64,000 nucleotides of DNA. Origin: Nitrosopumilus sp. Lineage in GTDB: Archaea > Thermoproteota > Nitrososphaeria > Nitrososphaerales > Nitrosopumilaceae. Positions 7,864-44,921 of the stretch are shown here, one piece after another. The stretch spans positions 992,001 to 1,056,000 of the forward strand of contig OZ244732.1 of the NCBI GenBank assembly GCA_965219345.1, read 5' to 3'. Position numbers and translations under genes: made by a program. Under the pieces are notes generated by a model that did not search any database, was not told the origin of the DNA, and was given only the letters and a program-made list of their open reading frames with translations. Each line of letters begins with the position of its first letter. The stretch's first letter is position 1.

Positions 7864-7912
7864 AGCAAGTCACCTTTATTTTGAATAGTAATAATCTGTC
7901 TTGTCAATTTGA

Positions 7913-15878: not shown

Positions 15879-15952
15879 GGTTCTGTAACGTTATCGTTAC
15901 CTGAAAACACGATCTTCTAAGGATTGAGATTTTACAAGCTAAAATGATGATA

Positions 15953-17080
15953 TTATTGATATTGACTAAGTGAGGCGTTTTGAATGATGGTCTTCCACTT
16001 GTTATTTCCATCAACTAGAATACCAGCTAATTCGGCTGGAGTCTTCTTGCCAATTCCACCATGCTTCTTTGAGAAATTGTAAAATGTCTGAAATCCGTCA
16101 AAGAGAGGACTGTCCATCTTTTTTATTCCCCTGTATGATACTTCCCTGTCTCTGATTGTACCGTTCAATCGCTCCATTCTGTTGTTGTTTTTGTCGCCTT
16201 TCATGTGGATATGGCGTATATGTTTCGTGTCTTTACATAGGAAATTCTTGGCCTTGTAGTTATTTTTCCATGCCTCATGGAAATTATGAGCTCCATCAGA
16301 GATTAGGGTTTTTGGTATCTTGTCTGCAATCATCATGGCTTCCCTGAACATTGGGTTTACATTTTCAGTACCTTTTGTATTTGCCACATATTGGGTAATC
16401 ATAAATCTGGTCTCATGGTCTAACATGGAATACTGGAGTTTCATATTGCCTTTTATCTTCATAAAAATCTCATCTGTTCTCCAAGTTTCAGATACCCTTG
16501 GAACTATGCCCTTTACGTAATCTGCAACCATCTTAGAGTATTTTTCAATCCATCTGTATACTGTCATGTGAGATACCTTGATGTCCTCCTGTTCAAAAGC
16601 ATCTGCAATATCCCTGACACTCATTCCTGCAAAGTACGATTGTAAGGCACGTGTAATTAGTACGTCCTTTGATCTCATTTTCTCAAAACCTAAATTTAGT
16701 GTGAATATCTTCTTACAATCCTTGCATTTGTATTGCTGGGTATTGCCTTTCCTGTTTTTTCTGATTCCCTTTTTGGTTAACCTGCCTGATGAACAGAACT
16801 TGCATAATGGGAGTTTTGACTGATCCATCATTCTAAATTCCTGTCTGGTATTACTTTGATTCTTTTTGATTAGTTCCAGTACAATCTTGATGTGCTTGCA
16901 GTCTGATTTTCTTTTGATGTGGTCTGGACAATCGCAAATTAACCCACCATCTGTCCTTGATATGATATAGTGAATCTGTGGTATGCTTTGTGATCTTACG
17001 CTGAATTTTTCAGGACTGAACTGTTTTACACAGTTTGGTTTTTCCATCATTTGTCTGGCTCTCTGGGTTCTTGGGTTCAT
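15953..17080 (-). CDS. IS6-family DDE transposase with N-terminal SWIM and Zn-ribbon domains
   Basis: CDCPDH..CKH (SWIM), CKFC..CKDC, TVYRWI (HTH), WRTDE, ISDG and NNRMERLNGTIR; ATG at 17080 preferred. Confidence 0.9.
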   Translation of the reverse strand: MNPRTQRARQMMEKPNCVKQFSPEKFSVRSQSIPQIHYIISRTDGGLICDCPDHIKRKSDCKHIKIVLELIKKNQSNTRQEFRMMDQSKLPLCKFCSSGRLTKKGIRKNRKGNTQQYKCKDCKKIFTLNLGFEKMRSKDVLITRALQSYFAGMSVRDIADAFEQEDIKVSHMTVYRWIEKYSKMVADYVKGIVPRVSETWRTDEIFMKIKGNMKLQYSMLDHETRFMITQYVANTKGTENVNPMFREAMMIADKIPKTLISDGAHNFHEAWKNNYKAKNFLCKDTKHIRHIHMKGDKNNNRMERLNGTIRDREVSYRGIKKMDSPLFDGFQTFYNFSKKHGGIGKKTPAELAGILVDGNNKWKTIIQNASLSQYQ

Positions 17081-17181
17081 ACAATAAGGTATCATTTACG
17101 GTAATATAAACATAAGGTAATAATTAAGGTATCAATACAATAAGGTAATAATAAATACCAGTACCTTATTTGATACCTTAT
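17081..17181. promoter_or_regulatory. Divergent promoter region with repeated TAAGGTA boxes (putative operators)
   Basis: Four TAAGGTA and two inverted TACCTTA copies within about 100 bp. Confidence 0.6.
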
Positions 17182-17347
17182 GGTAGAGTCTACAAAACTG
17201 CAAGCTGCAAATATAGCCAAGTCACTTAGAGCTACTGTGCCTATGTCAATAGTCAAACAACTTGAATTGAACGAAGGCGATTATCTCGAATGGGATTTGG
17301 ACAAAGACAGTAAGGGTTGGGTTGTCAAGGTGAGGAGGAGAAAGTGA
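17180..17347 (+). CDS. AbrB/MazE/SpoVT-like small regulator (55 aa)
   Basis: Manual translation MVESTKLQAANIAKSLRATVPMSIVKQLELNEGDYLEWDLDKDSKGWVVKVRRRK; paralogue at 43147-43329. Below ORF-track cutoff. Confidence 0.85.
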   Translation: MVESTKLQAANIAKSLRATVPMSIVKQLELNEGDYLEWDLDKDSKGWVVKVRRRK

Positions 17348-17354
17348 GATCAAT

Positions 17355-18224
17355 TTGATCAATTCAAAACTTAAACGTAAAGGAGTAAGGGTAAATGTAA
17401 CATTGAGACAAAAGACAAAACTCAAAGTTGATTTGGATAAAATCTACAATGAGAACTGTCTTAAGACGATGGCAAAAATGCCTGATAATTTTCTAGACCT
17501 TGTGATTACATCTCCTCCTTATGATAACATGAGACGATATGATGGCAATACCTTTTGTGAGTTTGAGCAGATAGCTGCGGAATTGTATCGTGTAATAAAA
17601 GTAGGCGGAGTCGTTGTATGGGTTGTAGGTGATCAGACTAAGAGTGGTGACGAAAGCGGGTCATCGTTCAAACACGCTTTGTATTTTAAAAAAATTGGTT
17701 TTAACCTGTTTGATACGATGATATATCTAAAACCCCCTCGTGGTGCAGTGGGAAATAACAAGACATACTGGCAGACATTCGAGTACATGTTTGTATTGTC
17801 AAAAGGACTGCCTAAAACAATCAATCTGCTAATGGACAGAGAAAACAAGGATGCAAGAGATGGTGATAACGGCACAAAGCGTCTGCATAACGGCAATCTG
17901 AAAAAACTAAGACGTGGAGGATATGAAAAAAATGGCAGAAGAACCAACGTATGGCAGTATAATATCGGCAATGGACATTCCGCAACCGACAGTTTCGCAC
18001 ACAAACACCCTGCAATCTTTCCTGAAAGTCTGGCAGAAGATCATATTTTGTCGTGGAGTGATAAGAACGATATCGTGTATGATCCATTTATGGGATCAGG
18101 AACCACTGCAAAGATGGTAATGCTAAACAAGCGTCACTATATTGGCAGTGAGATAAGCAAGGATTATTACAAGCTCGCAAATGACCGAATAAAGGATTGT
18201 CAGACCCAGATGCGACTAAGTTAA
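17355..18224 (+). CDS. Beta-class amino (N4-C/N6-A) DNA methyltransferase
   Basis: ITSPPY precedes HPAIFP and VYDPFMGSGTT; exact start uncertain. Confidence 0.92.
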   Translation: MINSKLKRKGVRVNVTLRQKTKLKVDLDKIYNENCLKTMAKMPDNFLDLVITSPPYDNMRRYDGNTFCEFEQIAAELYRVIKVGGVVVWVVGDQTKSGDESGSSFKHALYFKKIGFNLFDTMIYLKPPRGAVGNNKTYWQTFEYMFVLSKGLPKTINLLMDRENKDARDGDNGTKRLHNGNLKKLRRGGYEKNGRRTNVWQYNIGNGHSATDSFAHKHPAIFPESLAEDHILSWSDKNDIVYDPFMGSGTTAKMVMLNKRHYIGSEISKDYYKLANDRIKDCQTQMRLS

Positions 18225-18616
18225 AATGGTGTCGAGAGTGCAAACGGGATAAACTGGGAATACATTTTGCCAAGAACCAGTTTGGAAAAGATAACAGAAT
18301 ACTACGCAGACCTGTCTGCAAGGAATGTTATGCCAAAAAGAAGACAATAGACCCAAAGCTAAGGCGTGAATATTTAAAAAAACATCCTGCACCTGCAATA
18401 GGCAAGAGATTTACCTGTCCAATATGTCAAAAATCAAAAATCAGGGAACACAATAACGAGGTAAACCTTGATCATAACCATAAAACAGGCAAGATTAGGG
18501 GATGGATATGTAGCAGCTGTAACACAAGCATAGGCAAATTCAATGAGGATGTGAACGTCCTTGAAAGGGCAATCAAGTGGCTAAAGGGAACATTGCTGTC
18601 CTTCTTCTTCTTGTGA
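18197..18616 (+). CDS. Hpy99I-like betabetaalpha-Me (EndoVII/HNH) restriction endonuclease
   Basis: CxxC..F.KNQ..RPVCKEC..FTCPIC..LDHNHKTG..RGWICSSCN..IG.F layout; overlaps the methyltransferase stop. Confidence 0.8.
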   Translation: MSDPDATKLKWCRECKRDKLGIHFAKNQFGKDNRILRRPVCKECYAKKKTIDPKLRREYLKKHPAPAIGKRFTCPICQKSKIREHNNEVNLDHNHKTGKIRGWICSSCNTSIGKFNEDVNVLERAIKWLKGTLLSFFFL

Positions 18617-18720
18617 AGCGACGGTACTTAACACGGATAATCAGGCGACGCTAACTTAGCAATACCTTGAATCAATCCTTAGAAGATCGTGTTTTCAGGT
18701 AACGATAACGTTACAGAACC

Positions 18721-19435
18721 GTTCTGATACAAGATTGATTATTTCAGTAGAGTAGAACTCGCGGTCCATCAGCAGCAGCCGGGCCCGTATCCTGTAACCC
18801 TTGAGTTTTTGTACGAATTTACGCACAAAATCGGCATCATCCACGCTGCGCGTTACCTGCATGCACTCCAAAATGGCAGGAACCCGTTCTGCTACCACAT
18901 GCATTGTTGCGTAACACTCGAACTTACTTGTACCGCCCTTTGGTTTGGATCTTGTCAAATGTGACATGTTGTCCTTGTCATGCCTTGGTATCAGGTGCTT
19001 GTCTATTGCTACTAGTACGCCTCCCTTGTATCGGCATGTATTCTTGGCAAGTCTTGCGGTGCGTGTGAGCATGTCCCTGCAGAGTTTGTCTGCACTGCCT
19101 GATCCCAGCGAGTTTATCCTGTTGCGAAACCACTTGGGTGATGGCATCTTCTTTTCTGCGTGCTTGAGAAGCCTGATTGCTTCCTCGGAAGCTATGTTGG
19201 ATTCAGACATCTTCATCAGTATGGCTACAAACTCGCTTACCCCATATTGAGCATTCTTCCTAGTAGAGAATCCTATGGATGAAGACTCTAGTATTGCTGA
19301 CAAGGTATTAAGTATCCTTTCTCCAATCTTGTTACGGTGTACCTGCCCACCTTTTTGCACTAACACTAAGGTGGGTAAGGGCACTGTAGATAATAGATCT
19401 GTATGATCGAAAAATGTTAACGCATCAGAGAGCAT
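18721..19435 (-). pseudogene. ISH3-type transposase, N-terminal half
   Basis: VAIDKH, GGTSKF.YAT and LLMDREFYS motifs; cut by element A. Confidence 0.88.
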
Positions 19436-19537
19436 CTGTTGGCTGGTTTTATGGGGACATTTCCGACTACTGCATTCAATATAGGGTTAATAAATATGAA
19501 CCACTTTCCTTGATAAAGAGACTAATTAATTCTCATC

Positions 19538-20313
19538 TTTGAGTGTCTTGACTGTAAAAAGAAATTCTCTACAAACTTTGGATTTGAAAATATGAGATAT
19601 GACTATACCGTCATAACAGGAGCTCTACAAATGTACTATTCAGGTATGAGTGTAAGAGACATTGAAAATCACTATGAAATGCTGGGAATTGAAGTAGACC
19701 ACAGTTCTATCATGATTGGATTTGTAAATATTCTATAATGGTTAGCAAGTATCCAAATGAGATAGTTCCTAGAACCAACGAAAGAGTAATGGTAAGAGCC
19801 GATGAGGTTTGGATTAAGGTAAATGGCAAACAGAATTATTTGTTTGCCTCAATGGAAGATGATAGTCGTCATTGGCTAGCTAGCGATATGGCAGATACAA
19901 AGTTTCAACACAATGCAGACAATCTATTAAAGCTCACAAAGGAAGCAATAGGCAGAAATCCAGTTTATTTTGTAACTGACGGATTACCAGCTTGTTGTAT
20001 GAAATCATCAAAGAAAGTGTTTGGAAAAAAGACACTTCATACTAGGCATATTCACATTCAAAAGGATATGAACAACAACAAAATGGAGAGGATGAACGGA
20101 GAAATCAGAGACAGAGAGAAAGTATTCAGAAGTCTTAAGAAGATTGATACACCTATCATTGATGGTATGAAAGCCTATTACAATTTCACAAAAAAACATG
20201 GTATATTGAAAGGAAAAACTCCAAGTGAGGAAGCCTTGATTAAAGTAGATGGGAAAAATAGATGGAAAGCTATCATTGAGAACGCTAGTCTTTACAGGGA
20301 GAATTCGGTCTGA
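19538..20313 (+). pseudogene. IS6-family transposase remnant (5' truncated, frameshift near 19710)
   Basis: FECLDCKKKF..GALQMYYSGMSVRDI in one frame, then RADE, VTDG and NNKMERMNGEIRDRE. Confidence 0.88.
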
Positions 20314-20317
20314 TTTA

Positions 20318-20340
20318 CCACTTGATAACCCAACAAAACC
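20318..20340. repeat. Probable right TIR of the IS6 remnant
   Basis: Reverse complement GGTTTTGTTGGGTTATCAAG resembles the GGTTCTGT...GTTATC ends of elements A and B; partner end is missing. Confidence 0.6.
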
Positions 20341-20380
20341 AAAGAATATGATTAATATAGCTATATTTTCTGAGAAATAT

Positions 20381-23300
20381 GTGAATATTAATTACAAAAA
20401 CATATTGTGCCTTATGGCGCTGCTTTTTGTAGTGTATGGCACGACGACACTAACTGTATATGCTCAAACTGATAACCCACCGACAATCATCGCAGCTTCT
20501 GTGACCTCGACTACCGAGATAGTCCTGACGTACAGCGAGAACATAGAGGTCCCAACCACAAACGGCACGGGATTCGCCCTTTCCACCGGAGGAACGGTGA
20601 CGGCAAACACTGATCCCGCCGGCTCGGGCAACGTCATAACGCTTACCGTCTCCGGCATCACCAACACATCCGATACTCCGGCCATAACCTACACCGAATC
20701 ACTTGGCACCGTGGCAGACAGTGCATCAAACCAGGCGGCAGACCAGATCTTTGACCGCACAACCGATGACGCGCCGCCAACGGTATCTTCCATTGCAACT
20801 TCCGGCACATCAACAGTTGACGTCATACTGTCCGAAGACGTCATATACAACTTGGCAGCACCCGAAGATTTTGTGCTGTTTGTGCAGTCTGGCAACACGC
20901 TCACCTCCATGACTATAGGTGAAATCACGGCCGTTGACAACACGCTTACCCTTGACCATGACGCTACGCTTGCTAGTGATGATGTCATCAATCTGGAATA
21001 CAACAAAGCCACGGGCAGCATAGATGACATTATTCGTCCATCCTTTGTCGACTCTTTCTCAGTGGCATCACAAGAATTGTTCCCGCGAGATCTGGCCTTC
21101 TCCAACAACGGTACCAGGATGTTTGTTACGGGTGATGACGGCAATGACGTAAACGAGTACGCATTATCCGCCCCATTTGACATATCCCCCGCCACCTTTG
21201 TCGACTCTTTCTCGGTGGCAGATGAGGACCAAACCCCGATAGGCCTGGCCTTCTCTGCTAACGGAACCAGGATGTTTGTCGTGGGTGATGACAGCAATGA
21301 AGTATACCAGTACACACTAGCCGCCCCCTTTGACGTATCCAATGTCACCTCTGACAGCTCCTTCCTAGTGTCAACAGAAACGACATCCCCGCGGGGCCTG
21401 GCCTTCTCCAACGACGGAACAAAGATGTTTGTCCTGAGTTTCGCTGACAGTGTCGTATACCAGTACACACTAACCACCCCCTTTGACGTATCCACTGCCG
21501 TCTCTAGCTCCTTTTTCTCAGCGGCTTCACAGGACTCAATCCTAATTGGCCTGGCCTTCTCTGCCGACGGTACCAGGATGTTTGTTGCGGGTAGTCATAA
21601 CGATAAAGTATACCAGTACGCGCTGACTGCCGCCTTTGACGTAGGCACTGCCACCTTTGTCGACTCCTTCTCAGTACGTTCACAGGATGGCACCCCGCGG
21701 GGCCTGGCCTTCTCTGCTGACGGAGCAAGGATGTTTGTAGTGGGTGATGATAACGATAACATAAACGAGTACGCGCTGCCAAAACCATTTACGTTGTTCC
21801 CACAGCCAAACTCGCTTGCCAGCTTTACGGCAACCTTGGTCGAAAACAACATTCCATCAGATACGACCCCGCCAACAATCACCGCAGCTTCTGTGACCTC
21901 GGCTACCGAGATAACCCTGACATACAGCGAGAACATAGACGCCGACAGCACGGACGGCGCAGGATTCACCCTCTCCGTCGGACAAGTGACGGCAAACACC
22001 GATCCCGGAGGTTCGGGCAACACCATAACACTTACCGTCTCCGGCATCACCAACACATCCGATACTCCGGTCATAACCTATGCCGAATCACTTGGCACCG
22101 TGATAGACACCGCATCAAACCCGGCAGCAGACCAGACCTTTGACCACACAACCGATGACGCGCCGCCAACCGTGTCCTCCATTGCAACTGCCACGATGTC
22201 AATAATTGACATCGTGCTGTCCGAGAACGTCGCATACAACTCCGCGGCACCAGAAGACTTTGTGCTGTCTGGCACCATATCCCCAGACTCGGCCGTGACC
22301 GCAATCGCAGTCATTGCAGACACGGTCACCCTTTTCCTTGACGGCATGCTTGCTCATGATGATGTCATTAACCTGGCATACACCAGAACCACGGGCAGCA
22401 TAAATGACATTCCTTCTCCTCCGTCCTTTGTTGACTCTTTCTCCGTGTCCTCACAAGACGGAAGACCGCAGGGTCTGGCCTTCTCCAACGACGGAACAAA
22501 GATGTTTGTTGTGGGTGATGATAACGATGAGATAAACGAGTACACACTATCCATCCCCTTTGACGTATCCACCGCCACCTTTGTCGACTTTTTCCCAGCG
22601 GCTTCACAGGACTCATCCCCGCAGGGTCTGGCCTTCTCCAACGACGGAACCAAGATGTTTGTAGTGGGCAATATCGGCGATGAGATAAACGAGTACACAC
22701 TATCCATCCCCTTTGACGTATCCACCGCCACCTTTGTCGACTTTTTCCCAGTGGATTCACAGGATACAATACCGCGAGACATAGCCTTCTCCAACGACGG
22801 AACAAAGATGTTTGTTGTGGGCAATGACGACAATGACATAAACGAGTACACACTGTCCGCCCCCTTTGACGTATCCACCGCCACCTTTGTCGACTCTTTC
22901 CCAGTGGCATTACACGCATCATCCCCGCGGGGTCTGGCCTTCTCTGATGACGGACACGGGATGTTTGTTGTGGGTCACATCAATGTCGTAGTCAAGTACG
23001 AATTAACCGCCCCCTTTGACGTATCCACTGCCTCCCATGTCACCTCCTTCTCCGTGAAATCACAGGACGGCGTGCCATCGGGCCTGGCCTTCTCCAACGA
23101 TGGTACCAGGATGTTTGTTCTAGACAATGGCAACGATGCCGTACGCGAGTACGCGCTGTCGGATCCATTTACGTTGTTCCCACAGCCAAACTCGCTTGCC
23201 AGCTTTGCGGCAACCTTGGTCAAAAACAACATTGCACCACCAGATACGACCCCGCCAACAATCACCGCAGCTGCCGTGACCTCCCTTACCGAGATAGTCC

Positions 23301-26300
23301 TGACGTACAGCGAGAACATAGACGTCACAACCACGGACGGCCAGGGATTCACCCTCTCTGACGGGCAAGTGACGGCAAACACCGATCCCGCAGGTTCGGG
23401 CAACACCATAACCCTTACCGTCTCCGGCATCACCAACGCATCCGATGCTCCAAACGTGATTTACAACGCATCCGACGGCACCGTAGCAGACGGCGCATCA
23501 AACCAGGCAGCGAACCAGACATTTACCGATACGACCGACAGTACAGCTCCGACCGTGTCCTCCATTGGCACTGCCGGCATATCAACAATTGATATCGTGC
23601 TGTCCAAAAACGTCACAATAAACGGTGCGGCACCCGGAGACTTTGCGCTGTCCGGCACCATATCCACGGATCCGGCTGTAACTGGAATCACGGCCCTTAA
23701 CGACACGGTCACCCTTTCCCTTGACGATATGCTTGATGGCAATGATGTCATTAACCTGACATACGACAAGACCACGGGCAGCATAGATGACATTCCCGTC
23801 CCTCCGTCCTTTGTCACCTCCTTCCCGGTATCCTCGCAGGACTTGACCCCGCAGGGCCTGGCCTTATCCGCTGACGGAACAAGGATGTTTGTCTTGGGCA
23901 GCGGAGGCGGTGCCGTACACCAGCACACGTTGACTGCTCCCTTTGACTTGTCGACTGCCAGCTATGACAACATAGCGTTCTCAGTGACAGATCAGGAACC
24001 AGCCCCGCGGGACGTGGCCTTCTCCAACGACGGAACCAAGATGTTTGTCCTGGGTGACGGAAACAATGACATAAACGAGTACGCATTATCCGCCGCCTTT
24101 GACATATCCAATGTCGCCGGCACATCGGATGTCTCCAATGTCACCTCCTTCTCCGTGGCATCACAGGAATCATCCCCGCAGGGCCTGACCTTCTCTGCCG
24201 ACGGATCCAAGATGTTTGTAACGGGTTTTAACGGCGGTGACGTACTCCAGTACGCATTATCCGCCCCCTTTGACGTATCCACTGCCAGCTATGACAACAT
24301 CTCCTTCACGGTATCCCTCCAAGACTCAGACCCGCGGGACGTGGCCTTCTCTGCTGACGGATCCAAGATGTTTGTAGTGGGTTCCAGCAGTGACTCGGTT
24401 CACGAGTACACACTAACCGCCCCCTTTGACGTATCCACTGCCTCCCATGCCGACTCCTTCTCCGTGGAATCACAGGACGGCGCGCCATCGGGCCTGGCCT
24501 TCTCCGGTGACGGTACCAGGATGTTTGTCACGGGCGATGACAACGATGCCGTATACGAATACTCGGTATCCGAACCGTTTACTTTATTCCTACAGCCAAA
24601 CTCGCTTGCCAGCTTTGCGGCAACCCCGGTCAAAAACAACATTTCACCGTTTACAATCATTGCATCCTCCCTGACCTCGGCTACCGAGATAGTCCTTACG
24701 TATGACGAGAACATAGACGTCAACGCCACAGACGGCACCGGATTCTCCCTCTCCGTCGGGCAAGTGACGGCAAACTCCGATCCCGCCGGTTCGGACAACA
24801 CCATAACCCTTACCGTCTCCGGCATCGCCGCCGGCTCCGATACGCCGGATGTGACCTATACCGCATCCGACGGCACCGTGACGGACAATGAATCAAACCC
24901 GGCACCAGACCAGACCTTTATCGATACGACCGGCGGTACGACGCTGGCCGTGTCCTCCGCTGCAACTGCCGGCACATCAACAATTCACGTCACGCTGTCC
25001 GAAGACGTCACAATAAACGGTGCGGCACCCGGAGACTTTGCGCTGTCCGGCGACATATCCACAGACCCAACCGTGACCGGAATCGCCGCCATTGCCAACA
25101 CGGTCACCCTTTCCCTTGACGATACGCTTGATCATGACGATGCCATCAGCCTGACATACGACAAAACCACGGGCAGCATAGATTACATTCCTCTTCCGCC
25201 CTTTGCCGGCTCCTTCCCAGTAGATTCACAGGACAGGACCCCGGTAGGCCTGGCCTTCTCCAACGACGGAACAAAGATGTTCGTCACAGGCAGTCAAAAA
25301 GATAGGGTATACCAGTACGCGCTGACTGAACCGTTTGACGTATCTTCTGCCAGCTACAGTAGCAAGTCGTTCTCCGTGGAATCACAGGACGAAGATCCGC
25401 GGGGCCTGGCCTTCTCCAACGACGGAACAAAGATGTTTGTTTCGGGTGATGACGGCAATGACATAAACGAGTACGCGCTATCCGCCCCCTTTGACGTATC
25501 CACTGCCTCCCATGCCGACTCCTTCTCGGTATCCTCGCAGGACAATTCCGTGCGGGGCCTGGCCTTTTCTGCCAACGGAACAAAGATGTTTGTTGTGGGT
25601 GATGGCAACAATGCCGTATACCAGTACGCGCTGTCCGCCCCATTTGACGTATCGAATGTCACCGGCACATCGGATGTCTCCTTTGTCACCTCCTTCTCCG
25701 TGTCTTCACAGGAGAAATTCCCATTTGGCCTGGCCTTCTCCGATGACGGAACCAGGATGTTTGTAGTGGGTAATGACATAAACGAGTACATACTGTCCGC
25801 CCCCTTTGACGTATCCACTGCCCGCTTTGACAGATCCTTCCCGATAGATTCACAGGACTCGGAACAGACCGACCTGGCCTTCTCTGCTGACGGAACAAGG
25901 ATATTTGTAGTGGGTAATGGCAATGATTCCGTATACCAGTACGCGCTATCGGATCCATTTACGCTATCCCCACAGCCAGACTCGCTTGCCAGCTTTGCGG
26001 CAATTTCAGTTACAAACGACATTCCGGACACCACCCCGCCAGCAATCACCGCGGCCGCCGTGACCTCGGCTACCGAGATACTCCTGACGTACAGCGAGAA
26101 CATAGACGTCGCAACCACGGACGGCCAGGGATTCACCCTCTCTGACGGAGGAACGGTGACGGCAAACACCAATCCCGCCGGTACGGGCAACACCATAACC
26201 CTTACCGTCTCCGGCATCACAGCATCCGATGCTCCAGCTATAACCTATACCGCTCCACCTGGCTCCGTAGCAGACACCGCATCAAACCAGGCGGCAGACC

Positions 26301-35899: not shown

Positions 35900-35998
35900 T
35901 ACGTGTGTGCGTGTACGGTAGTGAGACAAAGCCGCAATCGCGTTTGCCTGTATGGTTATGTCACGCATGACAAAGTCTTTGGTCTGGTAGTCTCATCG

Positions 35999-37087: not shown

Positions 37088-37413
37088 TGTATTTCTGTTG
37101 TTATGCACATTTATAATCTTATTATTTATAAATAATATGATGTAATGATGACTAGCATAAATGATTTAATAGGCTTACTATGCGCTGCTTTGTTAAGTTA
37201 GTGGGAGTTTTTACTGCTTTGTCAAGTTAGGGTGTTTTCAGGGATCAGGCATGGATTTCTGAACTGGCTCAGAAATCAAAGGTGAGATAATAAAAAATAT
37301 TCACATCGTAACAATGTCATTATTAGCACTATCAGTTTTTGATTTTTTTTATGTTGGGTTTACTGGGCCAATTCACTAAAAATATTCATTCTGGCCCAGT
37401 TACCATTATTCTT

Positions 37414-37537
37414 GGTTCTGTGTAATCTTCGGGTGCCGATTTTCTCAAAAAAATTACTCAGCAGCCGTACTGAGTGAGGCGTTTTGGATTATGGTTTTCC
37501 ACTTGTTAACCCCATCAACCGAAGATTACACAGAACC
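37414..37537. mobile_element. 124-bp MITE-like IS6 deletion derivative
   Basis: 19-bp TIRs GGTTCTGTGTAATCTTCGG; interior encodes VDGVNKWKTIIQNASLSTAAE* on the minus strand (IS6 transposase C-terminus); no TSD. Confidence 0.88.
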
Positions 37538-37582
37538 ACTATATATGATATATTTTTATATCCGTGGGAATCTAGTAAATAT

Positions 37583-40015
37583 GTGAATATTAATTACAAA
37601 ACATATTGCATTGTGGCATTACTTTTTTCAGTGTCTGGAATGTCGACAATGACCGTACATGCCCAAACCAGTAATGAATTATCTATCACGTCACCATCTG
37701 ATGGTCATCTTACTTCAAACCACCAAATTACAATATCCGGTACTGCCCAAACTAACAGCCAAGTGGATGTGATGATCTTCATAACGCTAATAAATGCCCT
37801 CGGAGAGGCAGTCACTGCCCAAACTAACAGCCAAATAGTTACTGCAGACTCGCAAGGCGAGTGGAGTATTGATGCCTTACTTGCAGAAGGTGATAATATG
37901 ATCACCGTATCTAACGATGGCGCATCCGTATCTGTCACAGTTACATTGGATACTAGGCCACCAACAATTACACTACTGGGAGATGACCCGCAGATTATTG
38001 AATTGGGAGCAGGATATACTGAATTAGGAGCTACAGCTGATGATGGTTCTGAGGTTTTCTCATTATGGCAGCGTACATTTGCGGATGTGATAGGCAAACG
38101 TATCCTCATTGAATATCATGCTATGGATGAAGCCGGAAATGTTGGAGTTGCACATAGACATGTAAATGTTGTTCTCCCGGCAGTTGATATATTGCCGCCT
38201 ACTATTGTATTACCAGGATATGATAGTGTAAACAGCAGGGATAACATAGCATCCATATCCATACTGTTTCACAATTATTTTTATGACCTCAGTTATTGTG
38301 AAGATCTTCATGATGAAAATCCGGAACTTAGCTATACCATACTGGATCGCTTTACCGGCGAATATATAGATGCCATTGAATATCCCATACTTGAATACTC
38401 TTCATATATTCTATCTTATACTTGCACTGATGAATCTGGACTTGAAGCAGAACCTTGGACTAGCAGAGTCCTCTTTGTTGGACCAAGAGAAACATCTGCA
38501 TCAGAACAAAGAGAAACATCTGCATCAGAACAAAGAGAAACATCTGCATCAGAACAAAGAGAAACATCTGCATCAGAACAAAGAGAAACATCTGCATCAG
38601 AACAAAGAGAAACATCTGCATCAGAACAAAGAGAAACATCTGCATCAGAACAAAGAGAAACATCTGCATCAGAACAAAGAGAAACATCTGCATCAGAACA
38701 AAGAGAAACATCTGCATCAGAACAAAGAGAAACATCTGCATCAGAACAAAGAGAAACATCTGCATCAGAACAAAGAGAAACATCTGCATCAGAACAAAGA
38801 GAAACATCTGCATCAGAACAAAGAGAAACATCTGCACCAGAATCATCGGCTGGCAAAGCCTCCTTTGTTGGACCTAGAGAAACATCTGCATCAGAACAAA
38901 GAGAAACATCTGCATCAGAACAAAGAGAAACATCTGCATCCGAATCATCGGCTGGCAAAGCCTCCTTTGTTGGACCTAGAGAAACATCTGCATCAGAACA
39001 AAGAGAAACATCTGCACCAGACCAGTACCCACCATCTTTAGAAAATAATGATAAAAAAATGGGCGGTGGAGACAGCAATGATTGGGAGAAAAAACCAACC
39101 TTTGGCAAGTCTTTTTATACACATGCCCAAATTGTAGAGGATGGATTCTCATTTAACGGGCTAACTTTAGACATTACTGATAACTGGCACACAGACTTTG
39201 ACAAAACTAGCAGTATTATTGGTGAAACCAACCATGTTGAATTAAAAGTGTATGCTGATACAAGCCTCAGATCTGTTACTTTACAATTAGGTATTCCAGA
39301 GATTGGGCAATCACATTATGCTGAGACTGGAATCCACGTATTACTCTCAAGAAACTATACCAATCCAAATAACTATGATATTACAGATGTAATTCATGAA
39401 CAAAAAGAACCATTAATTAATGAAAAAAAATCTAGCGCATCCATAATTCCGTCAAAGTGTACCTCCAGTGATAGAAGCATGGATGAGCGCTGTCATACCA
39501 TATCATTTGACTTTACAATGATGGCACCTCTCAAATGGGATGTTGTTGCCATTAAAGCATCAGATTTTGACAGATATTCTACCACTACATTTATCAATGA
39601 AGGTGTAGAATTTACTGGAGAATCACTGCTTTCTCCTAAAACCCACACGCTGATGGAGAAAACATCAGCCCAAGAAAGACACACAGTTCTGGAATTAACA
39701 CAAATGGATAGAAGACATGCTGTGTATGAAGATCAGTTTGGTAATATTTGGGAACATAACGATTATGGAACTTGGAAAAAGGTCACACCTGATAAGATAG
39801 TCAGGGATAAAGACCCCGCTACAAATGTTATGACACGGTACCATTCATCATTTGACAGTTTAGTTTTACATGAAATTGGCAAAGCTACCAAAATATTTGA
39901 CAGTGATATGATTCAAAGCCAAGTTGGTGATAGTTTCACCTATGAGTATCCAACCGGAGATGGCTCTAGGACCATGTTTCTCAAAGAAAATAATATGATG
40001 TGGATTAGAGGCTAG
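37583..40015 (+). CDS. Secreted/surface protein (~810 aa) with Ig-like (DUF5011-type) domains, RETSASEQ repeat stalk and PTFG-containing C-terminal domain
   Basis: GTG start at 37583 gives a signal peptide ending VHAQ; DTRPPTITLLGDDPQIIELGAGYTELGATA. Confidence 0.85.
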   Translation: MNINYKTYCIVALLFSVSGMSTMTVHAQTSNELSITSPSDGHLTSNHQITISGTAQTNSQVDVMIFITLINALGEAVTAQTNSQIVTADSQGEWSIDALLAEGDNMITVSNDGASVSVTVTLDTRPPTITLLGDDPQIIELGAGYTELGATADDGSEVFSLWQRTFADVIGKRILIEYHAMDEAGNVGVAHRHVNVVLPAVDILPPTIVLPGYDSVNSRDNIASISILFHNYFYDLSYCEDLHDENPELSYTILDRFTGEYIDAIEYPILEYSSYILSYTCTDESGLEAEPWTSRVLFVGPRETSASEQRETSASEQRETSASEQRETSASEQRETSASEQRETSASEQRETSASEQRETSASEQRETSASEQRETSASEQRETSASEQRETSASEQRETSASEQRETSASEQRETSAPESSAGKASFVGPRETSASEQRETSASEQRETSASESSAGKASFVGPRETSASEQRETSAPDQYPPSLENNDKKMGGGDSNDWEKKPTFGKSFYTHAQIVEDGFSFNGLTLDITDNWHTDFDKTSSIIGETNHVELKVYADTSLRSVTLQLGIPEIGQSHYAETGIHVLLSRNYTNPNNYDITDVIHEQKEPLINEKKSSASIIPSKCTSSDRSMDERCHTISFDFTMMAPLKWDVVAIKASDFDRYSTTTFINEGVEFTGESLLSPKTHTLMEKTSAQERHTVLELTQMDRRHAVYEDQFGNIWEHNDYGTWKKVTPDKIVRDKDPATNVMTRYHSSFDSLVLHEIGKATKIFDSDMIQSQVGDSFTYEYPTGDGSRTMFLKENNMMWIRG
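38486..39020 (+). repeat. Coding 24-bp tandem repeat AGAGAAACATCTGCATCAGAACAA
   Basis: 14 perfect copies at 38486-38821, then two shorter blocks (2 and 1 full copies) separated by duplicated ESSAGKASFVGP linkers. Confidence 0.97.
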
Positions 40016-40408: not shown

Positions 40409-40864
40409 ATGTTGGCAGATACAACAATCCGTAAAGCTACGTATGATGATATTGATTACATTTTGGAACTACTGTATGATCTAGGACGATTACATCCACA
40501 AAACGATTCAGATGCCCACGGCTTTGCTGATATGGTAAAACAGTACGTTGCGGATACGGACAAGGAAATTCTTGTAGCTAAAATTGGCAATGACATAGTC
40601 GGCATGACAAGTATGATGTTTTTACCAAGGCTTAATCGTCTTACACCGGAGATGTATATCCCAGAGCTGATTGTCTTACCAAAATATCAAAGGCATGGGA
40701 TAGGAAACAAGCTCATGTCTGAATGTGTCAATATGGCACATGAGAAAAAATGCCATAGAATGAGGCTAGAGTCCGGGTATGCAAGAACTGCCGCACATCA
40801 ATTTTACACACATTTGGGGTTTGTAGATAATGCAAGGTCGTTTGTATTGGAATTAGTGTGCTAG
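40409..40864 (+). CDS. GNAT-family acetyltransferase
   Basis: V.PKYQRHGIG acetyl-CoA motif and AHQFYTHLGF. Confidence 0.9.
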   Translation: MLADTTIRKATYDDIDYILELLYDLGRLHPQNDSDAHGFADMVKQYVADTDKEILVAKIGNDIVGMTSMMFLPRLNRLTPEMYIPELIVLPKYQRHGIGNKLMSECVNMAHEKKCHRMRLESGYARTAAHQFYTHLGFVDNARSFVLELVC

Positions 40865-41006
40865 TCAGTACATCACAAGCTAAATTGCAGGAGATAGGCT
40901 GTAACATGCTGACATGTACTACACCATTGTATGCCATGATGATAATATCCTATGGTATGGTACTTTTGACATGTGTAATAATTGTGATGAAAGTACATCT
41001 GATATC

Positions 41007-41360
41007 TTATCTTGTAAAGTTCAGTGGTGGCTTGTAAGTTCCTAATAACATACATTCAGTAAAGCATCTTTCCCTGTAATTGTCTATCTTGATATATTTT
41101 ACACGATACCATTCTATTTTTTGTGATAGACTAGATCGTCTCTTTACTTTGCTGCATAGATTGCCTGTACCAATATTTAGCATATGTTCCTCACATCTTT
41201 TTTTCAATGAGTTTGTTTGGCCGATATATTGTAAAATCCCTTTTGGATCACTAATTAAATACACTCCAGGAATGTCAAAACCATCTCTATTTGCAATGTA
41301 TGATATTAGATGAGGCTTTGAATTTTCTATTATTTTTTGTATTCTATACCATGATATCAA
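41007..41360 (-). CDS. GIY-YIG nuclease-family protein
   Basis: PGVYLI...YIGQT.SL.KR..EH, conserved E and PPLN. Confidence 0.85.
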   Translation of the reverse strand: MISWYRIQKIIENSKPHLISYIANRDGFDIPGVYLISDPKGILQYIGQTNSLKKRCEEHMLNIGTGNLCSKVKRRSSLSQKIEWYRVKYIKIDNYRERCFTECMLLGTYKPPLNFTR

Positions 41361-41500
41361 AATTATACTTTATTGGCGATTTTGTTTTAAAGTGTTGCTA
41401 ATGATGGTTCTGTGAAGTTATCGTGTGTTAGCATGAAATGCGGATCTTCTCTGAATTGAATGAAGATTATGATACCTGACTATCTGGGTTTTTGGAAATT

Positions 41501-41722
41501 TTAAATTCTTTTGGAATATTTCTCACTAAACTTGATTTCATGTTTATGCCTATTTTTGGAATGTCGGGGCTTGTGTTTTAGATATGTCTCACAACAGGGA
41601 CATTTATGATTCCCACTCCATTCCAAAAAAACATCACAACTTGGACAATATTTAGAATTCGCTGTGTCGTACTGCCGTCTTGATTTCTTATATTTGCTAC
41701 AAAATCCATCACAAGACATCAT
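41501..41722 (-). CDS. Small Cys-rich Zn-finger-like protein (cargo of element B)
   Basis: CDGFC...CPSC..F.EW.G..CPCC...LKHKPR. Confidence 0.7.
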   Translation of the reverse strand: MMSCDGFCSKYKKSRRQYDTANSKYCPSCDVFLEWSGNHKCPCCETYLKHKPRHSKNRHKHEIKFSEKYSKRI

Positions 41723-41730
41723 GCATCACA

Positions 41731-42267
41731 TTACGGTTCAATCATTATAATTTTGACAGGAACTGACGGAACAGATCTATTCAGACGTTCAATGTCATAT
41801 TCTAACTGTTCACCATAAGACACGCCACTTGACATCTCCCTCATCATGCTGTATGTTGGAACAATTTCCACACCAACATCTATTTTTCCAGCATTGTAAA
41901 AATGTTGAAATTTTGACATATCATAAAACATGAAAGCATATTTGCCAAATTGAACCTCTACGTTAACTTTGTCCTTGTTGTAATCAATTTGCTTATATGA
42001 TGATATTTCCTTGTTTTTTGATATAGGTATGGTATAGTTGAGACGTATTTCTCGGAATCGCCTACTGGAAAAATTCGCTTGAAAGCTATCGTTTAACTCT
42101 CTTGGATTATACAGTTGTTTTCCTTTTCTGTTTTTTTCTTTTGAGATTTTTGTCTTAAATGGAGATACATCTGAAATTATGTCATTTATCTCACTGTTAA
42201 TTTCAGAAAATCTAGCAGCTAATATTTCACTCCCACCCAAATGAGAATACGTCTTTTTTATTTTCAT
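41731..42267 (-). CDS. BglII/BstYI-family type II restriction endonuclease
   Basis: YSHLGG, KQIDYNKDKVNVEVQFGKYAF and MSSGVSYGE motifs; ATG at 42267 overlaps the methyltransferase TGA (ATGA). Confidence 0.88.
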   Translation of the reverse strand: MKIKKTYSHLGGSEILAARFSEINSEINDIISDVSPFKTKISKEKNRKGKQLYNPRELNDSFQANFSSRRFREIRLNYTIPISKNKEISSYKQIDYNKDKVNVEVQFGKYAFMFYDMSKFQHFYNAGKIDVGVEIVPTYSMMREMSSGVSYGEQLEYDIERLNRSVPSVPVKIIMIEP

Positions 42268-43114
42268 GTTTGCATTCCGTATATTGGCCTGTTCATAGGT
42301 CTCGTTCGTAGTTTGTTTGTGGCAAGAAGCCTCAATCTGCTGCACAATATAGTAACATACTTTTGCTCTTTCTCAGAACCCAAACAATTTCTACCATGTT
42401 TCAGAGATGCGATTGCGGTAGTACCAGAGCCAATGTATGGATCATATACCATGTCTCCTTTATCAGTAAGTGCCAAGACGAGCCTCTCAACCAGTTCAAC
42501 AGGGAATTGTGCAGGATGTGAAGTTTTTTCAACATGGTTGTGTTTTACATTTGGGATTTCCCAGACATCAGATGGATTTTTTCCAAGTGGATTGCAACTT
42601 AGTTCCCCTTTTTTCTTACCTGAAAAATAATGTTTGGATGGATACTTTTGTGGAATGCGTATTGGATCAAGATTGAATGTGTAATTATCAGATTTTGTAA
42701 ACCATAATATTGTTTCATATCTGCCAGAAAGACGCTTTGAGCAATGTAATCCATGTCCAAAATGCCAAATTATCCTATTTCTTAGAAATAAATTCATGTC
42801 AGTAAAAATAGGATACAATACCATGTCCAATGGTGTGATCATTCCATTTTCTACAAAATTACCTACCTGCCAGCAGATCGAACCAGTAATTTTTAATTTC
42901 CTGACACATTCCCGTATTACTAGTTTTTGGTTTTTGATGTATTCATTCAATCCTTGTTTCTTTTCATATTCTTTGCCCAGATTGTATGGTGGTGATGTTA
43001 CAATTAATTGAATTGAATTGTTTGGTATTCTCTTAAGACAGTCTAGACAATCACCTGTGAAGATGGTGTTAGATACAGTTTGTTTGGAAGTATTCTTCCC
43101 CCCCCCTCATTCAT
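42264..43114 (-). CDS. Beta-class amino DNA methyltransferase, frameshifted at a 5' G9 tract
   Basis: Frame open from 43106 contains FTGDCLD, VTSPPYN, HPAQFP and YDPYIGSGTT; both upstream ATGs (43110, 43114) are out of frame across G9. Confidence 0.88.
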
Positions 43115-43146
43115 TTTGTATTTTGTCGTTTTTTTCATTGTATTAA

Positions 43147-43329
43147 TCACTCTTTCTTAGTTATCTTGGCTAACCAAGTTTTACCATCCTTATCTAATTG
43201 CCAGTTGAGATGATCTCCATCCTCTAACCCGATTTGCTGAACTACAAAAACTGGTATTGTGGTTCTCAGTGACTTGCTCTTTGATGTTGCAGGTGTGCAT
43301 ACTGTTTCTGTTCCCTCTAATCTTCCCAT
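43147..43329 (-). CDS. AbrB/MazE/SpoVT-like small regulator
   Basis: KSLRTTIPVFVVQQIGLEDGDHLNWQLDKD; paralogue of 17180-17347. Confidence 0.85.
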   Translation of the reverse strand: MGRLEGTETVCTPATSKSKSLRTTIPVFVVQQIGLEDGDHLNWQLDKDGKTWLAKITKKE

Positions 43330-43426
43330 ATAGGTAAATTAATTTAAACATATATTAATTTACCTATATTACAGATTTACCTATATATTTACCAATATTT
43401 ATATATGCAATTAGTTTACCTATATT
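43328..43426. promoter_or_regulatory. Divergent promoter region with repeated TTTACCTATA boxes (putative operators)
   Basis: Three TTTACCTATA, one TTTACCAATA and one inverted TATAGGTAAA. Confidence 0.6.
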
Positions 43427-43443
43427 ATGAATCAAAGAGAAAT

Positions 43444-43506
43444 GAGGGCAATGATGAGACCTACGACTTCTGACTCTATGATGAGTGAGATGACCTCTGA
43501 GCCCTC
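43444..43506 (+). ncRNA. Archaeal box C/D sRNA-like element
   Basis: C ATGATGA 43451-57; 12-nt guide; D' CTGA 43470-73; C' ATGATGA 43478-84; 12-nt guide; D CTGA 43497-500; closing stem GAGGGC/GCCCTC. Confidence 0.82.
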
Positions 43507-43554
43507 ATCTTTTGATTCATTTGATTCTATATTAATTTTCGAGGTGCAGTATGT

Positions 43555-44679
43555 ATGAACTCCAGAACTTAAAGAGCCAAACAAATGATGGAACTGCCAA
43601 ACTGCGCAGTACAGTTTAGCCCAGAAAAATTTAGCGTGAGATCACAAAGCATGCCACAAATTCACTATATCGTATCAAAGACAGATGGTGGGTTAATTTG
43701 TGATTGTCCAGATCACATCAAAAGAAAATCAGACTGCAAGCACATCAAGATAGTCTTGGAGCTAATCAGGAAAAATCAATGCAAGACTCAAGAGTTTAGA
43801 ATGATGGATAGGTCGAATTTCAATCTATGTAAATTCTGTGACTCTGGCAGACTGAAAAAGGATGGAATTAGAAAAAACAAGAAAGGTGATGTCCAGCAAT
43901 ACAAATGCCAAGACTGTAAAAAGAGATTTGTCTTGAACCTTGGATTTGAGAAAATGCGTTATGATCCTGTCTTAATCACTAGAGCTTTACAAATGTATTT
44001 TTCAGGTATGAGTATCAGGGATATTGCAGATTGCTTTGAGCAGGAAGAAATCAAAGTGTCTTATAGAGCAGTTTATGATTGGATTGACAAATATTCTCAA
44101 ATGGTTACAGATTATGTAAAAGGAATCGTGCCAAGAGTATCTGAAACATGGAGAACAGATGAAATCTTTATGAAAATTAGCGGTGTTCAAAAACTACAGT
44201 ATTCCATGCTTGACCATGAAACTAGATTTATGATTACCCAATTTGTAGCCAATACTAAAGGCACGGAAAATGTCGAGCCAATGTTTAGAGAAGCCATAAT
44301 GATTGCAGATAAAATCCCAACTACATTAATCTCTGATGGTGCAAAGAACTTTCACAAGGCTTGGAAAGATAATTACAAAGCCAAGAATCCATTATGGAAA
44401 GACACGGAACATATACGCCACATTCACATGAAAGGCGATAAAAACAATAATCGCATGGAAAGATTGAATGGGACTATCAGAGATCGTGAAGTTGCATATA
44501 GAGGAATAAAAAAGATGAATAGTCCTCTTTTTAATGGATTCCAAGCATTTTACAATTTCTCAAAAAAACATGGTGGAATTGACAAGAAAACTCCAGCAGA
44601 AAAAGCAGGTATTTTGGTTGATGGAGATAACAAATGGAAGACCTTGATTCAAAATACCTCACTTAGTCAATATCAATAA
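43555..44679 (+). CDS. IS6-family DDE transposase with SWIM and Zn-ribbon domains; TAA at codon 6, open from ATG 43585
   Basis: Closely similar to 15953-17080; ATG AAC TCC AGA ACT TAA aligns with MNPRTQ of element A. Confidence 0.9.
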
Positions 44680-44921
44680 TCATTATTTTAGGAATCTTTG
44701 TTTTAGAACTTGTAAATTTCAGGCAGATTTTTCAATCTTTAGAAGATCCGCATTTCATGCTAACACACGATAACTTCACAGAACCTAATGATTATGATGT
44801 ATGTAGAGATAGTTTTTGTGATCGCCATCGTATTATAATTTTTATTACTATAATTTGTAATGACTTTAAGAAATGTAAAAACAATTGTGTACTCTAACTT
44901 TTTTTTATTTTCATTACATAT

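Follow-up and report, generated by a model that had tools for sequence, protein, structure and literature searches.

Single-transposase units of IS6 type that carry exchangeable defence cargo in Nitrosopumilaceae

Introduction

Can one insertion sequence (IS) of the IS6 type carry a complete restriction-modification (R-M) system as its own passenger, and can it exchange that passenger for another? The question is raised by two loci, elements A (15879-18720) and B (41406-44785), in a 64,000-nucleotide stretch of a Nitrosopumilus genome (GCA_965219345.1, contig OZ244732.1, positions 992,001 to 1,056,000 of the forward strand; the window below means this whole stretch, whose own numbering is used). 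An initial annotation of this DNA had seen in A and B a modular transposon with a variable cargo slot. That a family of unit transposons with exchangeable defence cargo is real we now regard as practically certain, and A and B very probably belong to it, as members of an autonomous family of transporter IS (tIS, of IS6 type in the ISfinder sense) that is common in Nitrosopumilaceae. The anatomy is, in order, a distal terminal inverted repeat of about 50 nt, a cargo slot, a small gene, a repeat-filled divergent spacer, the transposase gene and a proximal terminal repeat.

Such an anatomy is unusual for the group. According to the accessible text of a 2021 review, IS6 elements are about 800 bp long, have short repeats with GG tips and a cTGTt motif, duplicate 8 bp of target and transpose by way of cointegrates, which homologous recombination resolves; of all members ISDsp3 alone is said to have a passenger gene (PMC7986276). 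In the part of their paper available to us, Harmer and Hall (2019, PMC6807381) state that archaeal 'IS6' transposases are at most 25% identical to the bacterial ones, have longer repeats and should stay outside the IS6/IS26 family. The thaumarchaeal mobilome paper describes, in the sections at hand, IS-like transposons with one or two genes (PMC6563490), and the accessible portions of a 2026 survey of archaeal IS are silent on passengers (PMC13343696). Our literature searches, whose scope excluded ISfinder and the supplements of the mobilome paper (PMC6563490) and of the IS6 papers, which may list some of the transposases, returned no account of this family and single precedents only; as far as they reach, the surmise that it is undescribed is borne out.

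Element A and its empty site

Element A is a 2842-bp unit delimited by a pair of terminal repeats and a target duplication. Its proximal repeat, at the 3' end of the transposase gene (15879-15927), is 49 nt long, starts with GGTTCTGT and is 100% complementary to the distal repeat (18672-18720), and an identical 8-nt sequence, GTTCTGAT, abuts both ends (15871-15878 and 18721-18728; 8/8). The element interrupts another IS of ~1.3 kb (15344-19435, minus strand), whose transposase-like open reading frame (ORF) is split into halves at 18695-19435 and 15344-15910; Pfam assigns no family to either half. When both flanks were joined with one copy of the duplication and searched against the source genome, three other loci (G000:C1:1516950-1518250, 1788257-1789571 and 1303248-1304555) spanned the joined junction at 99.5-100% identity over 1301-1317 bp. 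These intact copies of the host IS constitute an exact empty site, and the whole 2842 bp of A, R-M genes included, was thus inserted as one unit with an 8-bp duplication. That the terminal repeats show no mismatch and that a sister copy of the host IS is identical to the flanks marks the insertion as recent. Counting the split copy, the host IS is present at least four times in the genome.

The genes of A diverge from a central spacer. The transposase, a 380-aa ORF on the minus strand (15953-17095), matches PF13610 (DDE_Tnp_IS240; E 2.7e-13, 50.7 bits against a cut-off of 27) and combines CxC..CxH and CxxC motifs, an HTH (helix-turn-helix) and a DDE domain; the start common to its relatives is probably Met6, at 17080. 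The predicted divergent promoter spacer (17081-17179) contains six copies of TAAGGTA, four direct and two inverted, and a TATA-like box, TTTATATT, upstream of the transposase start; from the genome-wide frequency of the heptamer, 0.007 copies would be expected in 102 nt. On the plus strand follow the gene of a small, 55-aa AbrB/SpoVT-MazE-like protein of the type that we call cl4 (17180-17347; PF04014, 27.2 bits against a cut-off of 24.7), a DNA methyltransferase gene of the N4/N6 class with an SPPY motif (17355-18224; PF01555, E 5.1e-39) and an Hpy99I-like HNH restriction endonuclease gene (18197-18616; PF02945, E 1.3e-18). Residues 10-130 of the nuclease align with chain residues 76-196 of the solved Hpy99I (3fc3, E 3.5e-18), and the N-terminal ~70 residues of Hpy99I have no counterpart in it.

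Element B, a mirror image with signs of decay

Element B repeats the layout of A as a mirror image, with one extra 73-aa ORF. Its terminal repeats (distal 41406-41460; proximal, at the 3' end of the transposase gene, 44731-44785) are 55 nt long and 93% complementary; like those of A they start with GGTTCTGT, so that the long, related ends described in the initial annotation are confirmed. The flanking TAATGAT (41399-41405 and 44786-44792) is a duplication of 7 nt, or of 8 nt if 41398 is included, and assigning the final C of the right-hand repeat to the target extends it to the 8-nt CTAATGAT. The transposase, a 364-aa ORF on the plus strand (43585-44679; PF13610, E 5.1e-13, 49.8 bits, cut-off 27), is 84% identical to that of A (305/365). 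The spacer (43330-43440) contains ATAGGTAAA four times, against 0.002 copies expected in its 111 nt, and both spacers are thus as rich in operator-like repeats as had been proposed. All remaining genes lie on the minus strand: a 60-aa AbrB/SpoVT-like protein of type cl4 (43147-43329; PF04014, 23.3 bits, just below the cut-off of 24.7), 41% identical to its counterpart in A (22/54); an N4/N6 DNA methyltransferase with SPPY motif (42264-43138; PF01555, E 2.3e-47); a BstYI/BglII-like restriction endonuclease (41731-42345; PF09195, E 3.1e-22); and the additional 73-aa zinc-ribbon ORF (41501-41722; cluster 9), which has no Pfam match and whose homologue adjoins a type II nuclease in element L097. 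The nuclease matches the solved BstYI (1sdo) at E 7e-36 and BglII weakly; set beside the Hpy99I-like enzyme of A, it upholds the claim that the two nucleases have unrelated folds.

The common layout of A and B, as read from ORFs, Pfam matches and repeats, stands with one qualification, which is that the methyltransferase gene of B is frameshifted. Its ATG (43138) is out of frame with the body of the gene owing to a run of nine G at 43098-43106 (minus strand). Short-read contigs from three sequencing runs span this run with zero indels; in the dominant population, then, the gene is truly frameshifted, which rules out an artefact of long reads. For sequencing run X5 a number of bins lack coverage, among them that of the nine G (42994-43114), and element B is bridged by no contig; we take neither as evidence. 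To judge from the sequence, the run may reflect decay or act as a slippage switch. An in-frame TAA moreover removes the N-terminal ~15 codons of the B transposase that its relatives share, and element B may be decaying. The ORF of the BstYI-like nuclease looks intact despite the frameshift in the methylase gene.

A family of elements in Nitrosopumilaceae

The source genome (1.91 Mb, two contigs) holds 40 matches to the transposase of A, and a repeat search around the longer ones revealed four more elements. Element C (4570 bp, repeats of 52 nt, perfect duplication TTGACGAG) carries a 906-aa MmeI-family enzyme; D (3978 bp, repeats of 58 nt, no duplication) an N4/N6 methylase and a 428-aa protein with no assigned family; E (3244 bp, repeats of ~47 nt, perfect duplication TCATATCA) a broken N4/N6 methylase; and F (4169 bp, repeats of 29 nt, no duplication) an EcoRI-type methylase and a GmrSD_N-HNH nuclease. 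A wider scan of one genome per species, with the alignment of the six transposases as query, gave 78 loci, all from Nitrosopumilus, Nitrosopumilaceae, Thaumarchaeota or Nitrososphaerales records. From the repeat output 38 candidates were picked by eye, 35 of which could be anchored on GGTTCTGT-type tips (the other three, L042, L049 and L082, could not); 23 of the 35 have an 8/8 duplication, two a 7/8 duplication and ten fewer matches. A second pass over the 24 remaining loci with near-full matches yielded six more elements, four of them with an 8/8 duplication. Homologous transposases that enclose a small regulator and cargo within terminal repeats thus occur four more times in the source genome and 41 times in other Nitrosopumilaceae, as the idea of a family required. 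The total of 47 elements ranges from 1855 to 7034 bp, and 30 of them have a perfect 8-bp duplication, each of which would arise by chance with a probability of ~1.5e-5.

Two further observations bear on mobility. L036 and L037 are identical over 2557/2557 nt at two loci of one genome, and L059 and L081 are one element, one copy of which has received a nested IS of 1.4 kb. With the exact empty site of A and the perfect duplications, the identical 2557-bp copies establish the claim that these elements are mobile as units: they insert whole, with an 8-bp duplication, and identical copies occupy different loci. IS5-like (DDE_Tnp_4) sequences are nested in three elements (L066, 5574-6737; L081, 6639-7835; L097, 8723-10069); one of them splits an MmeI-family gene and another an IS6-type transposase gene.

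The N-terminal 150 aa of the transposase, which distinguish it from its classical relatives, find a match in 144 of 401 genomes of the family Nitrosopumilaceae and in 20 of its 27 genera; this tally takes in six unpublished genomes (G228, G206, G077, G258, G093 and G092), whose removal leaves 138 of 395. Phylum-wide sampling gave the match in 23 of 43 Nitrosopumilaceae genomes versus 10 of 257 from other families. A scan of viral contigs returned one short transposase fragment and no element.

The transposases and ends bear most hallmarks of the IS6 family. In the alignment of A to F, D208, D267, E308 and R315 are invariant in all six, and the arginine lies seven residues after the catalytic glutamate, where the family has K or R; the IS240/IS6-type DDE domain scores above the Pfam cut-off in A and B; the tips begin with GG and contain CTGT (GGTTCTGT, in a few elements GATTCTGT or GGTACTGT); and the direct target duplication is of 8 bp. 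The initial annotation had spoken of closely similar SWIM-domain transposases: the similarity stands, and the domain is reduced to a pattern, as Pfam found no SWIM match at E <= 0.01 in A or B and the CxC...CxH motif alone is present, its ligands C54, C66 and H68 invariant in 6/6 transposases and its first cysteine a tyrosine in F. Simple IS6 elements measure ~700-900 bp (up to 1.76 kb in the long clades) and consist of one near-full-length ORF between repeats of 14-20 bp; the present elements reach 1855-7034 bp, with repeats of 22-60 nt, one to five extra genes and transposases of 365-390 aa, some 150 residues longer at the N terminus than classical ones. As in a tIS, one IS encloses the passengers within its terminal repeats and a target duplication flanks the whole; there is one transposase gene per element and the distal end is only a repeat of 50-120 nt, which sets them apart from IS6 pseudo-compound transposons.

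A conserved backbone and a replaceable interior

Comparison of related elements shows where the fixed part ends. In a BLAST search of A against all elements, the five closest relatives are 77.9-80.2% identical to it in DNA, and this homology is confined to positions ~1638-2842 of the element (the transposase gene to the end) and to the first 47-49 nt. Six close pairs were compared, and in five the similarity is lost no more than 1-2 nt from the transposase ATG, to return only in the distal repeat. The break is sharpest between L056 and L058 of one genome, which are 96% alike over the 1186 nt that begin at the ATG, share another 122 nt at the far end and differ in their interiors. Overall, interiors differ among elements whose transposase genes are about 80-96% identical in DNA. 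The break at the ATG shows that the backbone comprises the two repeats and the transposase gene, and that the replaceable interior includes the spacer and the small gene along with the cargo.

R-M parts were recognised with Pfam and PADLOC in 24 of the 47 elements, and they are of several types. MmeI-family enzymes are carried by C and L066, a type IIG enzyme by L051 (with a fragment in L098), HsdM and HsdS by L062, type III Mod and Res by L060 and L070, MunI with an MT-A70 methylase by L069, CfrBI with a methylase by L074 and Mrr by L092. An EcoRI-type methylase with GmrSD_N-HNH is found in F and L056, the latter with a 707-aa GmrSD protein as well, and N4/N6 methylases with type II nucleases or unassigned partners are found in others (A, B, D, E, L052, L055, L058, L063, L073, L077, L078 and L097); several of these have partners that PADLOC labels REase_II. 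The claim that the cargo consists of R-M modules thus covers only part of it. Three elements have other defence- or addiction-like cargo, namely a CAP12/Pycsar effector with a TIR domain (L046), a SocA/Panacea-domain protein (L044) and NurA (L057); three carry a DUF4760 gene (L036, L037 and L100); and the remaining 17 hold only ORFs that lack an assignment or are very small. PADLOC returned nothing for five of ten unassigned partner proteins, nor did Pfam for any of ten further small cargo ORFs.

Homologues of the A nuclease occur in 9 of 401 family genomes. Four of these loci, all from other genomes, were fetched; none lies inside an intact element and the repeat search gave no pair. Locus L125 (G274:C1 ~6012-7560) is a decayed relative of A. 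What survives there is a solo repeat belonging to another subtype, the nuclease and methylase genes, an AbrB gene with a frameshift, AAGGTA operators and the first codons of the transposase gene, where the similarity stops.

The small divergent gene and its spacer

Clustering and profile searches over six-frame translations of the 47 elements identified exactly one small gene in 35 of them (13 of type cl2, 17 of cl3 and 5 of cl4), always on the strand opposite to the transposase gene and in most elements directly upstream of it. Type cl4 is the AbrB-like type of A and B. The cl3 proteins ('WKKDETEF...RIPKPI') have no Pfam match; their model is a beta-alpha-beta-beta fold (predicted local distance difference test, pLDDT, 73), for which the top hits in the PDB are MraZ and AbrB, not significantly, and the nearest Atlas cluster is AbrB/MazE/SpoVT (0.90). 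For the cl2 proteins ('KEYLYYxYYDNGKK..YCG' followed by a long helix) the model shows three strands and a 31-residue helix (pLDDT 95), with arm-type integrase domains and AP2 as top hits, again not significant; profile comparison of cl2 with cl4 gave nothing. We treat the Atlas scores, 0.85-0.90 for the small proteins, as leads only. Judged by these models, two of the types look AbrB-like and the third looks like a beta-sheet with a coiled coil.

The type of small protein and the transposase lineage are uncoupled. A tree built from 33 transposases (of 41, 8 fell short of 300 aa and were dropped) requires 12 changes of type, against a mean of 11.5 for shuffled labels; being distributed about as a random label would be, the regulator is best seen as a swappable module and not as a fixed AbrB. 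Repeats or palindromes peculiar to the element occur in every spacer; often they lie in the interval that separates a TATA-like box from the transposase ATG. In L056 (~7743-7970) and L092 (~7266-7970), arrays of 21-nt tandem repeats, which read 'SGVWCLV' in one frame, stand directly upstream of the transposase gene; these two elements have none of the three small-protein types.

The association with the transposase extends to the smallest elements. Minimal elements of 1.86-2.3 kb (L050, 1855 bp; L087, L038, L083 and L043) have a small gene and no recognisable R-M genes. Of the 12 hits of the three profiles in the source genome, six fall in A to F, two are neighbours of degenerate transposase genes, three belong to IS debris or lie close to a solo end, and one is weak. 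Methylase and nuclease genes follow the small gene in the same orientation, overlapping or separated by 4-9 nt, in A, B, L069, L077 and L070. We take the small gene to be a putative repressor module that belongs with the transposase promoter region and that, in A and B, stands at the head of the methylase and nuclease genes as well.

A C/D-box-like module upstream of some transposase genes

Between the spacer and the transposase gene of B lies a putative C/D-box small RNA (sRNA; 43447-43502, plus strand), recognised with Rfam and by alignment with five other elements. It scores 36.9 bits (E 5.7e-8) with RF01152 (sR1), whose gathering score is 45, and many other C/D families also match; C, D', C' and D boxes, guides of ~12 nt and a terminal stem can be made out. 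A conserved TATA-like block follows 3' of it (~43526-43544). The six elements have such a module ~75 nt upstream of the transposase ATG, followed by a conserved promoter-like block, TTCTATATTAATTTTCAAGGGG; the other five copies are in L032 (~4660-4740), L037 (~7900-7960), L038 (~7875-7960), L052 (~2700-2765) and L077 (~7875-7950). A strict C/D-box pattern is found in two of the 47 elements, the other four having been recognised by alignment. The guides vary between copies, and for the two of B the source genome contains no 12-nt complement except their own antisense.

Other features of the window

The surroundings of A and B bear further traces of IS6-type elements. A 126-bp sequence resembling a miniature inverted-repeat transposable element (MITE; 37413-37538) has inverted ends, GGTTCTGTGTAATCTTCGG, between which a vestige of an IS6-type transposase gene, from its 3' end, is preserved; the same ends bound IS6 copies of classical size, 983 and 985 bp, elsewhere in the genome (L011/L012). 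Broken short IS6-type transposase genes lie in inverted orientation at 19592-20313 (plus strand) and 47061-47564 (minus strand, PF13610) and bracket a 27-kb stretch with a giant gene and element B. The giant gene (20249-35899, plus strand) is a 5216-aa ORF built of ~153-nt and ~1.4-kb repeats, with beta-propeller and SWM-repeat matches; downstream of it an 843-aa ORF (37484-40015, plus strand) contains about 20 tandem 24-nt repeats (RETSASEQ). Directly outside the left end of B is a 117-aa ORF with a GIY-YIG nuclease domain (41007-41360, minus strand).

A model and its alternatives

By analogy with IS6/IS26, the transposase would bind both terminal repeats and copy the unit into its target via a cointegrate, to be resolved by host recombination; such resolution would explain the elements without duplications. 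On the strength of this analogy we lean, with moderate confidence, towards transposition through cointegrates. The anatomy suggests that DNA inserted after the left repeat and before the transposase gene would separate that gene from an end-borne promoter, so that a working element would need a new one, which the divergent promoter of the small gene could supply. The small protein would then bind the repeats of its own spacer and repress both the transposase gene and its own transcript; in elements with co-oriented methyltransferase and nuclease genes, such as A and B, that transcript would extend to them. Expression would burst in a naive cell and then shut down, much as in C-protein control of R-M systems, and interiors would be swapped by recombination in the shared transposase gene and the distal repeat. 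From sequence features, we think it somewhat probable that the small protein is a repressor acting on the divergent promoters.

Several observations weigh against this reading. Transposition, DNA binding and repression are all inferred. The advice of Harmer and Hall, as worded in the part of their paper at hand (PMC6807381), places archaeal elements outside the IS6/IS26 family and makes the borrowing of the IS26 mechanism a stretch. A perfect duplication is missing from 17 of the 47 elements, no repeat pair was found at 18 of 57 near-full transposase loci, and the set was curated by eye; B itself looks decayed, by its methylase frameshift, the stop near its transposase start and its 93% repeats. 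Homologues of the methylase-nuclease pair of A lie outside intact elements in four other genomes, in one decayed element and at three loci without a repeat pair. As to the regulator, the initial annotation had placed the variable slot behind an AbrB protein of the element's own; the interiors are indeed interchangeable, and the regulators are of three types and wanting in 12 of the 47 elements. In Foldseek searches against the PDB neither the cl2 nor the cl3 model matches at E <= 0.001 (best E 0.7 and 2.3), and the cl3 and cl4 profiles match only weakly (E 0.041, probability 1.3%), which does not show common ancestry. Finally, roughly half of the cases checked (D, L051, L055 and L062) have cargo and small gene in convergent orientation, so that operon control of the cargo cannot be general.

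Might the repeat pairs themselves be due to chance, or be composites of an ordinary IS with a solo end or a MITE, whose enclosed genes never moved with the transposase? The genome is rich in IS6-type fragments, GGTTCTGT ends occur 53 and 59 times against 20 expected, and tandem or extra left ends are seen in L037, L053 and L099; the idea is nevertheless contradicted by the empty site of A, the 30 perfect duplications and the element found identical at two loci, and we consider it hardly credible. A stronger case can be made for a separate archaeal family with a related DDE fold, which could follow another route, for instance cut-and-paste. The long repeats (30-60 nt), the extra N-terminal residues of the transposase and the recommendation of Harmer and Hall against archaeal inclusion (PMC6807381) speak for it; on the other side, the IS240/IS6 domain scores of 50.7 and 49.8 bits exceed the cut-off of 27, identical duplicate copies fit copy-in transposition, and GG tips, CTGT, the 8-bp duplication and the arginine seven residues past the glutamate are all family features in the text of the 2021 review that we could consult (PMC7986276). 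We hold a separate family to be rather unlikely, and keep the elements in the IS6 type.

The small protein could be part of the cargo, an archaeal non-HTH analogue of the C protein that times methylase and nuclease, with any effect on the transposase incidental. The small gene does head R-M strings in A, B, L069, L077 and L070, it sits with its repeats in the variable interior, outside the conserved backbone, its type is uncoupled from the transposase tree, and the decayed element of G274 keeps an AbrB-operator-methylase-nuclease block behind a different repeat subtype. Such a role would leave unexplained, however, why the five minimal elements (L050, L087, L038, L083 and L043) have the gene without recognisable R-M genes and why it always adjoins and diverges from the transposase gene, whatever the orientation of the cargo; the convergent cargo of D, L051, L055 and L062 precludes an operon with it, and none of its 12 homologues in the source genome lies in a context free of IS6-type transposase genes, fragments or terminal-repeat-like ends, a check that took in no R-M genes outside the elements. 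A purely cargo-bound regulator is, in our estimate, unlikely. Alternatively, the AbrB/MazE-like proteins could be antitoxin-like addiction parts, with the nuclease or an as yet unrecognised toxin as partner. In favour, PF04014 comprises the MazE/AbrB antitoxins, a further small ORF follows in the same orientation in some minimal elements (67 aa in L050) and L044 contains a Panacea-domain gene; yet scans of cargo ORFs detected no toxin family beside the small proteins, cl2 (13 of the 35) has a different fold, and the dense element-specific repeats point to DNA binding. As antitoxins of the AbrB/MazE fold are also DNA-binding autorepressors, the two readings overlap; an antitoxin role in place of transposase regulation seems to us quite improbable. 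We thus retain the reading of the small protein as a putative repressor of the divergent promoters.

Implications

It is tempting to go further and to speculate, although as a whole this is improbable, that the regulator-operator cassette is a swappable 'immunity' module, which would let sibling elements coexist without cross-repression and allow a burst of transposase and R-M expression in naive cells; the elements would then be self-regulating addiction transposons and the main route of defence turnover in ammonia-oxidising archaea, and in a subset the C/D-box RNA in the transposase leader might add control at the RNA level, via L7Ae/k-turn binding or guided methylation.

The elements matter beyond this speculation. 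In accounts of IS6/IS26, passengers travel only between two IS copies, and the 2021 review names one tIS (PMC7986276); by contrast, in this archaeal lineage one IS6-type transposase with long ends carries a regulator and a defence cassette as a unit, reshuffled between near-identical backbones. The elements provide a testable vehicle for the patchy distribution of R-M systems in ammonia-oxidising archaea, organisms that are abundant and hard to manipulate genetically and for which they also offer a compact natural chassis for gene delivery. They further offer a set of predicted small archaeal repressor-operator pairs, a possible case of a transposon-embedded C/D-box RNA and, for enzyme discovery, many types of restriction enzyme, including partners without a family match.

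Comparison with known systems

The C proteins of type II R-M systems are small HTH DNA-binding proteins, encoded at the head of the operon, that act on repeated operator boxes in their own promoter. Here the small proteins are instead AbrB/SpoVT-like or combine a beta-sheet with a coiled coil, to judge from the models, and the promoter region also faces the transposase gene. As carriers of diverse and exchangeable defence cargo, the elements resemble the Tn7-like transposons described by Benler et al. (2021) in the available text (PMC8649781); those are large, with multi-gene machinery and target-site choice, whereas one DDE transposase serves a unit of 2-7 kb here.

Closer in anatomy are the R-M units of Furuta, Abe and Kobayashi (2010), which have imperfect inverted repeats, 8-bp duplications and empty sites, and one of which, in Neisseria gonorrhoeae (26-bp repeats), also holds a transposase-like gene (PMC2853133). 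In contrast to the present elements they are isolated bacterial cases, no archaeal case having survived the screen and the transposase being absent in one and of no established role in the other; in the part of the paper at hand there is neither a regulator module nor a family, nor evidence that cargo is exchanged (PMC2853133). With IS26/IS6 pseudo-compound transposons our elements have in common the DDE transposase with its K/R residue, the GG tips, the 8-bp duplication and the mobilisation of passengers. There, as the accessible text of the review puts it, two directly repeated IS copies flank the cargo, which moves by resolution of cointegrates (PMC7986276); here, one transposase gene and one distal repeat of ~50 nt enclose it.

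The nearest parallel is ISDsp3 of Dehalococcoides sp. BAV1, which, as described in the accessible parts of both sources, has a single IS6-type transposase, a passenger inside its terminal repeats and an 8-bp duplication (PMC7986276, PMC6807381), with repeats (28/36) and a size (1456 bp) above those of typical IS6 members (PMC6807381). By these descriptions, on which alone we compare, it is a bacterial element present as a single copy, with one hypothetical passenger and a 319-aa transposase. The elements described here, on the other hand, form a large archaeal family of 1.9-7 kb with a regulator module and defence cargo.

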